A program made the position numbers and the translations under genes. From Candidatus Methylomirabilis sp. (lineage in GTDB: Bacteria > DYJV01), in the NCBI GenBank assembly GCA_020722945.1, contig DYJV01000001.1, forward strand, positions 15,520 to 79,519: a stretch of DNA of 64,000 nt, read 5' to 3'. Positions 59,342 to 60,345 of this stretch are shown here, one piece after another. Position 1 is the stretch's first letter. The number at the start of each line of letters is the position of its first letter. Under the pieces are notes generated by a model. It had not been told where the DNA came from, ran no database searches, and worked only from the letters and a program-made list of their open reading frames with translations.

Positions 59342-60076
59342 ATGGATTTTTCTATTGCAAATATGATTGATGCTTCAGCTTTTTTTGGAGCAGGTGTATG
59401 TATGGGGACAGGTGCTATAGGAGCTGCCATAGGTGAGGGTTATACTGCTGGTGAAGCTGTCAATGCTATTTCTCAGCAGCCTTCAGTCTCTCAAAATATT
59501 CTTAAGACAATGCTTATAAGTATGGCTGTTGCAGAGTCATCATCTATATTTGCATTAGTTGTTGCGATAATACTTGTTTTTTCAGATTTCACCTCTGGCA
59601 ATTTATATACAGCCACAGCCCTTATCTCTGCAGGTCTATGTATGGGTATAGGTGCTTTTGGTTCAGGTATAGGATCAGGTTTTCCTGGTGGGACGGCTTG
59701 TAAAGGTATTGGAAGGAATCCAAAAGTTAGTAATCAGATTGTTACTAATATGCTTATTGGACAGGCTGTTTCTCAGACTCCAGCTATATTTTCAATGCTT
59801 GTAACTTTTATACTTATTTACAAAAGTTACTCTTTGGAGATCACAATTACTTATATTTCAGCTATTTTAGGTGCAGGATTATCAATGGCTTTTGGAGCTA
59901 TTGGACCTGGTATTGGTGGTGGGATTGCTGCTGCTTACTCTACTGAGGGTGTCTCCAAAAATCCAGCACTCTCTAATGTCTTGACACGACTTATGTTGAT
60001 TGGGCAGGCTGTATCCCAATCCACAAGTGTCTATGCTTTGGTTGTATCTTTTGTTTTACTATTCATAGTTAAATAA
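59342..60076 (+). CDS. Triplicated F-type ATP synthase c subunit (three fused helical hairpins, about 6 TM); the ion-binding Glu is retained only in hairpin 1
   Basis: Three about 81-aa repeats each align to the adjacent 82-aa c subunit. Helix-2 motifs are MAVAESSSIF, GQAVSQTPAIF and GQAVSQSTSVY, against [11 protein letters not shown] in the single c. Loops are SQQP, GRNP and SKNP, against SRNP. Confidence 0.8.
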   Translation: MDFSIANMIDASAFFGAGVCMGTGAIGAAIGEGYTAGEAVNAISQQPSVSQNILKTMLISMAVAESSSIFALVVAIILVFSDFTSGNLYTATALISAGLCMGIGAFGSGIGSGFPGGTACKGIGRNPKVSNQIVTNMLIGQAVSQTPAIFSMLVTFILIYKSYSLEITITYISAILGAGLSMAFGAIGPGIGGGIAAAYSTEGVSKNPALSNVLTRLMLIGQAVSQSTSVYALVVSFVLLFIVK

Positions 60077-60096
60077 AATTTTTATAGGAGGAGAAA

Positions 60097-60345
60097 ATGG
60101 ACATAAGTGGTGCTGAAATTGTAAAAGCTGCTTCATTTTTGGGAGCAGGAATATGTATGGGTATAGGAGCTATTGGACCTGGAATTGGTGAAGGTTTTGC
60201 AGCAGGTAAAGCTTGTGAAGGTGTTTCGCGTAATCCAGAGGAAGCAGGGTTACTTACAAGGACAATGCTGGTTGGACAGGCTGTATCGGAATCTACAGGG
60301 ATATATTCTCTTGTTATAGCTCTGCTTCTGATATTTGTTGTTTAA
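60097..60345 (+). CDS. atpE: F-type ATP synthase subunit c (single hairpin) with a Na+-type binding signature
   Basis: 82 aa: [22 protein letters not shown], loop RNP, helix 2 [32 protein letters not shown]. Confidence 0.9.

Follow-up and report, generated by a model that had tools for sequence, protein, structure and literature searches.

The only documented fused subunit that lowers the ratio of ions to ATP in a bacterial F-type ATP synthase is c1 of Acetobacterium woodii, which has a close relative in Clostridium aceticum. Its ring is built from nine c2/3 subunits and one c1, carries ten sites and belongs to a working Na+ ATP synthase; the two hairpins of c1 have been described as Q..ET, then Q..QT. 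Reviews report multi-hairpin c subunits for archaea only and, in bacteria, only the two-hairpin c1. The ratio is of importance because it sets the ATP yield from a given membrane potential, and it matters most near the thermodynamic limit, for example in sulfate reducers, which account for a large share of organic carbon oxidation at the seabed.

Beyond the bacterial F-type enzymes, the triplicated proteolipid of the Methanocaldococcus jannaschii A1Ao enzyme consists of three fused hairpins and keeps two sites. NtpK of E. hirae, the c subunit of the eukaryotic V-ATPase and the A1Ao c subunit of E. callanderi are two-hairpin proteins in which the loss of a site lowers the ion/ATP ratio. The c subunit of F. 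nucleatum, on the other hand, forms a homomeric c11 ring (PDB 3ZK1) of single hairpins without a multi-hairpin partner. Hairpins have also been linked artificially, in the engineered c10 of Bacillus PS3, and such fusions can assemble working rings.

In the window, by which we mean the whole 64,000-nucleotide stretch of DNA analysed here, a 244-residue protein with three c-type hairpins, hereafter c3, is encoded beside a c subunit of ordinary size (Table 1). The operon is F-type by its subunits (Pfam) and by its gene order, and its subunit a also matches the NCBIfam entry 'F0F1 ATP synthase subunit A'. Two orthologous loci, L001 and L002, have the gene order atpI-a-c3-c-b'-b-delta-alpha-gamma-beta-epsilon, with gamma, beta and epsilon following alpha in L001. 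Assignment to an N-ATPase operon was considered and rejected, the gene order being that of a classical F-type operon. The total score of c3 lies just at the cut-off of TIGR03322 and gets there only by summing the three hairpins. An Rfam scan of the 64-kb window returned no match. UvrB gives the window a loose placement, close to Thermodesulfobacteriota (64-65% identity).

Table 1. Genes, c3 hairpins and the translation signal of the single c in the ATP synthase operon (positions in the window).
Feature	Positions	Strand	Evidence
atpI, assembly factor, 121 aa	58296..58661	+	PF03899, E=2.4e-7
Fo subunit a, 224 aa, stator arginine motif SFRLFGN	58663..59337	+	PF00119, E=4.7e-50; motif from translation
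c3, three-hairpin c, 244 aa + stop	59342..60076	+	3x PF00137, E=1.2e-41; AF2 model
c3 hairpin 1, aa 1-83, only hairpin with ion site (E32, E65)	59342..59590	+	
c3 hairpin 2, aa 84-163, site lost (S112, Q145)	59591..59830	+	
c3 hairpin 3, aa 164-244, site lost (G193, Q226)	59831..60073	+	
Strong Shine-Dalgarno AGGAGG, 5 nt before single-c ATG	60086..60091	+	read from sequence
Single-hairpin c, 82 aa	60097..60345	+	PF00137, E=4.7e-19
Fo subunit b', uncertain start codon	60387..60851	+	PF00430, E=1.8e-17
Fo subunit b	60866..61474	+	PF00430, E=1.3e-16
F1 subunit delta (OSCP)	61471..62013	+	PF00213, E=3.3e-43
F1 subunit alpha	62018..63532	+	ORF

The original prediction had read the 244-residue frame as three c-subunit hairpins with a single ion-binding carboxylate, and both parts of this reading hold. 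PF00137 matches three distinct segments of c3 (E=1.2e-41; 141 bits, the cut-off being 24), the NCBIfam models of the single-hairpin F0-c each match it three times, and its AlphaFold2 model (pTM 0.73) consists of six long helices forming three hairpins. All three repeats have GxGxGxG-type motifs and Q/R/K-N/Q-P loops. Aligned over c3 hairpins 1 to 3 and the single c, the helix-2 site residue reads E/Q/Q/E and the helix-1 partner residue E/S/G/E; the motifs quoted in the prediction for helix 2 (AVAESSS, AVSQTPA, AVSQSTS and AVSESTG), helix 1 (GEG/GSG/GGG) and the loops (SQQP/GRNP/SKNP) were all found as written. Hairpin 1 has E32 (gag, 59435-59437), V63, E65 (gag, 59534-59536) and S66, with S67 and F70 in place of T67 and Y70, so that its partner residues S66-S67-F70 are degenerate, and its loop is SQQP. 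Hairpin 2 combines Q145 (cag, 59774-59776) with the partner residues T-P-F and the loop GRNP. Hairpin 3, which among the hairpin classes is nearest to the single c, combines Q226 (caa, 60017-60019) with the canonical partner residues V-S-T-Y and the loop SKNP. Helix 2 of hairpins 2 and 3 contains no further D or E in the window's protein; a carboxylate elsewhere in that helix, which had been named as the finding that would overturn the single site, is thus excluded for this protein, and the helix-2 carboxylate is confined to hairpin 1.

All the ligand positions of the single c, namely E32 (60190-60192), V63, E65 (60289-60291), S66, T67 and Y70, are present and identical to those of the F. nucleatum c subunit, with which it shares about 60% identity. 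By sequence, the single c has the two-carboxylate Na+ motif of the Fusobacterium type. E32 and E65 are also common to the F. nucleatum subunit and hairpin 1 of c3.

The hybrid rotor of A. woodii, to which the original prediction had already pointed, is an apt comparison: c1 is both the best sequence match to c3 among solved structures (PDB 4BEM chain J, E=5.8e-27) and the best fold match to its model (TM 0.79 on target, rmsd 2.0 A). Like c3, the c1 subunits of A. woodii and C. aceticum are multi-hairpin proteins encoded in an F-type operon between the gene for a and genes for ordinary single-hairpin c. The A. woodii protein further shares with c3 the Na+-type motifs, a site in hairpin 1 with an E to Q change in a later hairpin, and a Y70 that is lost from hairpin 1 and retained in the dead last hairpin. 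It differs in having two hairpins and four helices with one hairpin dead, where c3 has three hairpins and six helices with two consecutive dead ones; in its V-type-like size of 16-18 kDa against 244 residues; and in its Q32 and E65, where c3 and its partner c have the two carboxylates E32 and E65. The two hairpins of c1 share 57% identity with one another and 60-62% with the F. nucleatum c subunit, but only 31-46% with the hairpins of c3 and of its four- and five-hairpin relatives c4 and c5. This identity matrix suggests separate duplications, and hence that the c3 family arose independently of c1, which is found in Bacillota whereas the c3 family belongs to Thermodesulfobacteriota.

The other described systems are further removed. 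The M. jannaschii proteolipid resembles c3 in having three fused hairpins and fewer sites than hairpins (c3 keeps one), but it is encoded in an A-type operon and is the sole subunit of its ring, whereas c3 stands beside a single c in a bacterial F-type operon. The two-hairpin c/K subunits of V- and A-type enzymes match the fold of c3 (TM about 0.8 on target); they belong to another enzyme class with homomeric or V-specific rings, in which dead and live hairpins alternate regularly, as opposed to the block of dead hairpins in the c3 family.

Tandem repeats in metagenome assemblies are viewed with prior suspicion, and this is all that speaks for taking the c3 frame as an assembly artefact of three atpE copies, as the original prediction had allowed, or as a functionless, decaying paralogue. 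The same a-c3-c-b'-b order and upstream synteny occur in independent NCBI and ENA assemblies, with orthologues of equal length and pattern, and a search of related genomes found the a-c3-c-b'-b order in three more species-level MAGs (L006-L008). The hairpin-coding segments of c3 are only 63-74% identical in DNA and therefore did not arise from three atpE copies being collapsed or expanded by the assembly; from this divergence, the triplication is old. With pN/pS substituted where dS, which is near-saturated, was saturated, dN/dS is about 0.05-0.2 per hairpin (0.03-0.18 in hairpin 1, 0.05-0.19 in hairpin 2 and, as dN/dS or pN/pS, 0.05-0.20 in hairpin 3), which amounts to purifying selection on every hairpin of c3, similar in strength to that on the single c (pN/pS 0.03-0.11). 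Among six c3 proteins, 75-77% identical, 150 residues are invariant, site residues included. A pseudogene was rejected on the grounds of the selection in each hairpin and the invariant residues, and the reading as artefact or decay is effectively refuted, with next to no probability left to it.

It is also evident that c3 does not stand alone. The literature that we found agrees with the claim that three-hairpin, single-site c subunits are undescribed for bacterial F-type operons: full-text literature and reviews yielded no description of a bacterial F-type c with three or more hairpins, although a mention in a review on the distribution of hybrid rotors is possible. Beyond what the original prediction could see, c3 is not singular, since c subunits with three, four or five hairpins are present in at least 228 species-level genomes, mostly of Desulfobacterales, as counted with scan patterns (KTML[VI]SMA, QTPAIF[AS]M) that favour EQQ, EQQQ and EQQQQ proteins and under-sample EQQE and EQQQE. 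The family, apparently undescribed as a whole, is spread across Thermodesulfobacteriota, c3 being its shortest member, and it has been hidden in annotation because every member is called merely 'subunit C'. A single c lies directly 3' of the multi-hairpin gene in 77 of the 81 distinct loci (85 fetched, four of which duplicate L001, plus the window), and in the other four the sequence ends too soon past the multi-hairpin gene to judge; two complete genomes that were checked likewise have the single c after the multi-hairpin c. At 52%, hairpin 3 of c3 is no closer to hairpin 3 of the EQQE proteins than to their hairpin 4, and we therefore make no claim on the order of events, such as an origin of EQQE by fusion of c3 with a single c. 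In Desulfobacterales, the Fo genes lie in an operon apart from the F1 genes.

The arrangement of residues around the sites offers an insight into how such proteins may be placed in a ring. A Na+ site is formed by E32 and E65 from one hairpin together with V63:O and S66 from the adjacent one, and in the duplicated NtpK of E. hirae the partner Thr64 sits one hairpin ahead of Gln110 and Glu139. If this preceding-partner geometry is carried over from E. hirae to c3, the F70 and S67 of hairpin 1 would be harmless to its own site. Across 128 family clusters, [S/T]67 and Y70 are present in 49 of the 52 internal hairpins that are followed by an active hairpin and in none of the 396 followed by a dead one, with Fisher statistics that are uncorrected for shared ancestry. 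The first hairpin is canonical in none of the clusters and the last in 127 of the 128, whether it has its own E or not, a pattern expected only if the last hairpin abuts the active site of another subunit in the ring. The c1 subunit of A. woodii obeys the same rule (ETS..F, then QTT..Y). Over all multi-hairpin families of an exhaustive search, the rule showed no significant association (p=0.23), and the proteins outside the family are probably in many cases H+-coupled or A/V-type; the rule is therefore claimed within the c3/c4/c5 family alone.

These residues also bear on the idea that c3 acts as an assembly scaffold or nucleator, which would seed or size a ring of single c and be absent from, or irrelevant in, the mature rotor. 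A transient scaffold would need neither the V63/S66/T67/Y70 of the last hairpin nor the E32/E65 of hairpin 1, and the two-hairpin analogue, A. woodii c1, crystallised as part of its ring (PDB 4BEM). Thus, we consider such a role improbable, even though the c3 gene lies close to that of a known factor in c-ring assembly, atpI, a low abundance would follow from its weak ribosome-binding site, and its site-less hairpins keep mainly packing residues.

The translation signals of the two c genes are indeed unequal. The ribosome-binding site of c3 (AAGGA, 7 nt before the ATG) is weak to moderate, with a Shine-Dalgarno duplex energy of -5.4 kcal/mol versus -10.2 kcal/mol for the single c. The signal of the single c is the stronger one in 64 of 67 loci (mean -10.5 versus -4.3 kcal/mol), Shine-Dalgarno strength being a mere proxy for the protein ratio. 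The asymmetry fits the 9:1 precedent of A. woodii and, together with the partner residues, would indicate that c3 is a minority component of a mixed ring. Rings of c3 alone (for example four c3, with 12 hairpins and 4 sites), as an alternative to the single-c ring, seem very improbable. While archaeal multi-hairpin proteolipids do form homo-oligomeric rings, and the half-site of the last hairpin would equally fit hairpin 1 of a second c3, a single c is found in every locus with enough downstream sequence, the asymmetry points to very unequal amounts made from one transcript, and four sites per three ATP (1.33) would be far under any known synthase.

Overall, we regard it as likely that c3 is a functional minority part of a mixed, Na+-coupled c ring of an F1Fo that is ordinary in other respects, for which we infer the presence of c3 in the ring, its copy number, the ring size, the coupling to Na+ and the physiological direction. 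The bulk of such a ring would be the 82-residue c with its Fusobacterium-type E32/E65/S66/T67/Y70 Na+ site. One c3 would fill three adjacent hairpin positions and contribute one complete site, in hairpin 1, completed by V63, S66, T67 and Y70 of the hairpin preceding c3; hairpins 2 and 3 would turn a neutral Gln towards the stator arginine and carry no ion, and hairpin 3 would offer the subunit after it a half-site of V63/S66/T67/Y70. With each c3, two sites would therefore be lost while the ring kept its size. To our knowledge, all characterised Na+ F-type rings have 11 hairpins. A ring of that size with one c3 would have 9 sites and a ratio of 3.0 Na+ per ATP, lower than the 3.67 of a ring made of single c throughout and the 3.33 of the A. 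woodii ring, and the four- and five-hairpin relatives would leave 8 and 7 sites. The family thus probably reduces the ion cost of each ATP.

How a rotor of this kind would run under synthesis is a more delicate matter. Normally two or three carboxylates face subunit a together, and in the engineered fused c10 of Bacillus PS3 one E56Q hairpin abolished ATP synthesis, which makes consecutive dead hairpins (two in c3, up to four in a row in its EQQQQ relatives) mechanistically demanding for an enzyme that synthesises ATP. What was fatal in the artificial PS3 protein is nonetheless conserved naturally in the c3 family, with two to four such hairpins. It could be argued that an enzyme with a multi-hairpin c works mainly as a Na+ pump driven by ATP, or with a bias to one direction, rather than as a low-gear synthase, and the classical view indeed holds that a site-depleted c favours pumping. 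Ion-less hairpins would cost nothing under F1 drive, while they would form a torque-free arc in synthesis, and in PS3 one dead hairpin was enough to end synthesis; we estimate that the four dead hairpins of EQQQQ, in a ring of 11, would exceed one 120-degree step of F1. With a low ion/ATP ratio a pump can also reach a steeper gradient, V-ATPases being an example, and the separate Fo operon of Desulfobacterales would permit alternative Fo modules. In the lineage of the window, however, c3 belongs to a single complete, housekeeping-like operon from atpI to epsilon, its predicted ratio of about 3.0 is inside the range of known synthases, and the A. woodii and E. callanderi enzymes, which have a site-depleted c, make ATP at 90-150 mV. 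Chiefly pumping or one-way enzymes are thus an unlikely explanation.

Returning to synthesis by a mixed ring, c3, c4 and c5 might represent a graded natural series of reduced gears, in which one such subunit per ring sets the Na+/ATP ratio in unit steps and the rings work despite their dead arcs. The sites of the family, one or two live ones with blocks of two to four dead hairpins, would provide for such a series, which we put forward tentatively and with more doubt than conviction. If true, the rotors would work where models of Fo torque and the PS3 E56Q result predict stalled synthesis, by an unrecognised passage of ion-less positions through Fo or by a built-in directional bias, and would do so in some of the most abundant bacteria of marine sediments.

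The strategy documented in Acetobacterium appears to be taken further here, to three to five hairpins, and to occur commonly among Desulfobacterales and their relatives. It raises the question of how a rotor gets past the stator with two to four ion-less positions in a row. Cultured carriers of the family exist, namely Desulfosarcina widdelii PP31, D. variabilis and Desulfatitalea alkaliphila, and the question is therefore directly testable.

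The window carries the full set of Fo genes with F1 genes downstream, and the 244-aa ORF within it, termed c3 here, consists of three tandem c-subunit hairpins, as the original prediction had it: the protein matches the c-subunit profile three times, and AlphaFold2 (pTM 0.73) models it as six long helices that form three hairpins. The site, partner and loop motifs quoted earlier for c3 and for the adjacent single c were all found exactly as quoted. Aligning c3 hairpins 1-3 and the single c gives E/Q/Q/E at the helix-2 ion site and E/S/G/E at the helix-1 partner position, and the codons agree that c3 keeps a single ion-site carboxylate, E65 in hairpin 1, with Q145 and Q226 in hairpins 2 and 3. 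The window holds protein-coding genes only, at a GC content of about 27-35%, and an Rfam scan of its whole 64 kb returned no family at gathering score.

Features of the window and of related loci fetched from other assemblies (L001, L018, L028)
Feature	Position	Sequence	Details
Chemotaxis cluster	8642-27870	window	1031-aa CheA, 891-aa methyl-accepting chemotaxis protein
CheX-like gene	57765-58229	window	154 aa
CheX-like gene	4415-4879	L001	
atpI	58296-58661	window	
Subunit a	58663-59337	window	
c3	59342-60076	window	244 aa, + strand; PF00137 x3, E=1.2e-41 (Pfam)
c3 E32 codon	59435	window	gag
c3 E65 codon	59534	window	gag
c3 Q145 codon	59774	window	cag
c3 Q226 codon	60017	window	caa
c3/single-c spacer	60077-60096	window	20 nt
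c3/single-c spacer	6733-6955	L001	223 nt
Single c	60097-60345	window	82 aa, + strand; PF00137 x1 (Pfam)
b', b, delta, alpha genes		window	3' of single c, in this order
Two successive single-c genes	5009-5613	L018	3' of four-hairpin gene
Two successive single-c genes	4233-4837	L028	3' of four-hairpin gene

Several observations establish c3 as a genuine gene. Its coding repeats share only 63-74% pairwise DNA identity, and a 75%-identical orthologue, present in several independent assemblies from NCBI and ENA, lies in the same operon as in the window (a-c3-c-b'-b-delta-alpha-gamma-beta-epsilon) with cysS and CheX also shared upstream; these findings rule out an assembly artefact, including a misassembly of three atpE copies. 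The gene order suggested as a search target in related genomes is thus present there, and three more species-level MAGs (L006-L008) have it too. Each hairpin shows a pairwise dN/dS of about 0.03-0.19 where dS is unsaturated and a pN/pS of at most 0.20 where it is saturated, ratios comparable to those of the single c, with synonymous divergence nearly saturated. Low dN/dS in every hairpin and 150 invariant positions among six three-hairpin proteins (75-77% identical), including E32, E65, S112, Q145, G193 and Q226, rule out a pseudogene; artefact and pseudogene together retain a negligible chance of being right. Only 20 nt separate c3 from the single c in the window, as against 223 nt in the 75%-identical orthologous loci L001-L005. 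A CheX-like gene lies immediately 5' of atpI on the same strand, and across related MAGs a CheX-family gene keeps its synteny with cysS and with genes for a DUF4254 protein and a heptosyltransferase.

Moreover, c3 has a wide kinship. A protein search recovered many relatives of about 241-244, 324 and 404 aa, with three, four and five hairpins (c3, c4, c5), many of them from Desulfobacterales or Thermodesulfobacteriota. When each species was represented by a single genome, at least 228 genomes had a relative, with Desulfosarcina widdelii PP31 and Desulfatitalea alkaliphila as cultured examples; D. variabilis carries one as well, labelled 'AtpE4'. Further diversity emerged when 1.84 billion cluster representatives were searched exhaustively. 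By UvrB, the window organism belongs to an uncultured low-GC lineage (~31% GC) whose closest named relatives are Thermodesulfobacteriota (64-65% identity). The NCBIfam F0-c models are all single-hairpin and match these proteins 3, 4 or 5 times, and annotation therefore masks the architecture. The comparison of loci covered 85 fetched ones and the window, giving 81 distinct loci once L002-L005, which are extra assemblies of the gene in L001, are set aside. One or more genes for a c of ~82 aa come immediately 3' of the multi-hairpin gene in 77 of these loci, and in the other four (L015, L021, L025, L080) the sequence stops too early 3' of it to show what comes next; two complete genomes inspected likewise have a single c directly 3'. 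Hairpin 1 has E65 in all loci compared and E32 in all except one, internal hairpins have Q65 throughout, position 32 being S, G or A, and the last hairpin carries either Q (EQQ, EQQQ, EQQQQ) or E (EQQE, EQQQE). The Desulfobacterales Fo operon, atpZ-atpI-a-cN-c-b'-b, where cN is the multi-hairpin gene, has no F1 genes nearby (L086, D. variabilis CP159846.1; L088/L089), unlike the window lineage with one unbroken operon through epsilon; such split operons could permit alternative Fo modules on one F1. The paired single-c genes of L018 and L028 resemble atpE2 and atpE3 of Acetobacterium woodii.

Whether c3 sits in the ring can be approached through the partner residues of the site. In Na+ rings, one hairpin binds the ion through E32 (or Q32) and E65 and its neighbour does so through V63:O and S66, with Y70 and T67 as support. 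In the duplicated NtpK of E. hirae, hairpin 1 supplies the partner Thr64, and Gln110 and Glu139 are in hairpin 2; the partner role therefore falls to the hairpin that comes before in the chain. Across 128 family clusters, [S/T]67 and Y70 are retained in 49/52 internal hairpins that precede an active (E65) hairpin and in 0/396 that precede an inactive (Q65) one (Fisher p=2.5e-62, a value that ignores shared ancestry). The first hairpin, always before an inactive one, retains them in no cluster, and the last does so in 127 of 128, with or without its own carboxylate. Since the Na+ half-site is maintained there, an inactive last hairpin would make sense only if, within a closed ring, it lies against another subunit's active site. 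The same rule is followed by c1 of A. woodii, the two-hairpin, one-site c of a Na+ hybrid ring. Further, the Shine-Dalgarno is stronger for the single c than for the multi-hairpin c in 64 of 67 loci (mean duplex energy -10.5 versus -4.3 kcal/mol; in the window, AGGAGG versus AAGGA), an asymmetry that would fit a majority of single c and a minority of c3, as in the 9:1 A. woodii ratio. That c3 acts only as an assembly scaffold appears quite improbable, and rings built of c3 alone even more so.

We envisage that c3 would occupy three ring positions, two of them bearing neutral Gln; its N-terminal edge would provide a complete site and its C-terminal edge a half-site. Because the ligand set of the single c (E32, V63, E65, S66, T67, Y70) is exactly that of F. 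nucleatum c, Na+ coupling is the best guess for this enzyme. In every Na+ F-type ring characterised, the number of hairpins is 11; an assumed ring of this size with one assumed c3 would have 9 sites and need 3.0 Na+ per ATP, compared with 3.67 for an all-single ring and 3.33 in A. woodii, and one EQQQ or EQQQQ relative per such ring would give 2.67 or 2.33. By arithmetic on these assumed rings, 3.0, 2.67 and 2.33 would sustain about 52, 46 and 41 kJ/mol at -180 mV. A difficulty is that ATP synthesis is lost when the engineered c10 ring of PS3 contains one E56Q hairpin and that subunit a normally has two or three carboxylates facing it simultaneously, so Gln blocks of two to four hairpins are non-trivial for synthesis. 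The family's two to four consecutive Gln hairpins could accordingly speak for a pump or a one-way biased enzyme; however, for c3 itself the case is weaker, as a ratio of ~3.0 is ordinary among synthases and c3 sits in the sole visible, complete atp operon. The site-depleted A. woodii and E. callanderi enzymes make ATP, and a pump or one-way bias is unlikely.

The likeness to A. woodii c1 proposed originally is upheld, c1 (PDB 4BEM chain J) being the best match to c3 in sequence (E=5.8e-27) and, against the model, in fold (TM 0.79, rmsd 2.0 A); by analogy, c3 may work in its manner. It differs from c1 in having the two-carboxylate motif and in departing from the two-hairpin form. Among solved chains none spans all three hairpins (top TM-score on query 0.60). 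The triplicated proteolipids of archaea match c3 in number of hairpins and differ in enzyme type, operon and mixed-ring context. The first hairpins of c3, c4 and c5 are mutually closest (55-71% identity), the internal Q-hairpins form separate classes, and each terminal class is nearest to other terminal hairpins and the single c; c5 looks like c4 with hairpin 2 present once more. In A. woodii c1, the two hairpins are 57% identical to each other, 60-62% to F. nucleatum c and 31-46% to family hairpins, distances that, as an argument short of phylogeny, suggest independent origins for c1 and the c3/c4/c5 family. In reviews and primary papers published up to 2026, archaea are the ones credited with c subunits of 3 to 13 hairpins, and bacterial F-type enzymes only with the two-hairpin c1; a 2026 Desulfatiglandales paper speaks only of multiple atpE copies. 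A full-text literature search found no bacterial F-type c with at least three hairpins, in line with the novelty first supposed; a 2015 review of hybrid-rotor distribution lay outside its coverage and may hold a brief earlier mention. The principle of a site-depleted fused c is already known; what appears to be new is three to five hairpins with blocks of inactive sites, an apparently independent origin, the mechanistic puzzle and a wide distribution in ecologically dominant sulfate reducers.

Other proteins from the searches extend this diversity. A very diverse family of ~318-aa four-hairpin c subunits (P0307, P0318, P0320, P0336 and >30 others), known from representative sequences alone, has the site pattern E-Q-E-D and is 27-33% identical to c3. 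Five proteins (P0274, P0281, P0264, P0324, P0380) have no site carboxylate in any hairpin (GQQ, SQQ, SQQQ, QQQ) and, if full-length, would be wholly ion-less rotor subunits. P0277 (968 aa), P0302 (1139 aa) and P0352 (524 aa) have 12, 14 and 7 hairpins per chain with Glu in all, like the single-polypeptide rotor of Methanopyrus kandleri. P0083, the four-hairpin c of D. variabilis, is recorded as 'AtpE4: ATP synthase subunit gamma (F0 sector subunit gamma)', an inconsistent name in which the 4 implies that the genome has four or more atpE genes. Elsewhere in the window, a chemotaxis cluster unrelated to c3 adjoins genes for a TPR/YbgF-like protein and a B12-binding radical SAM protein.
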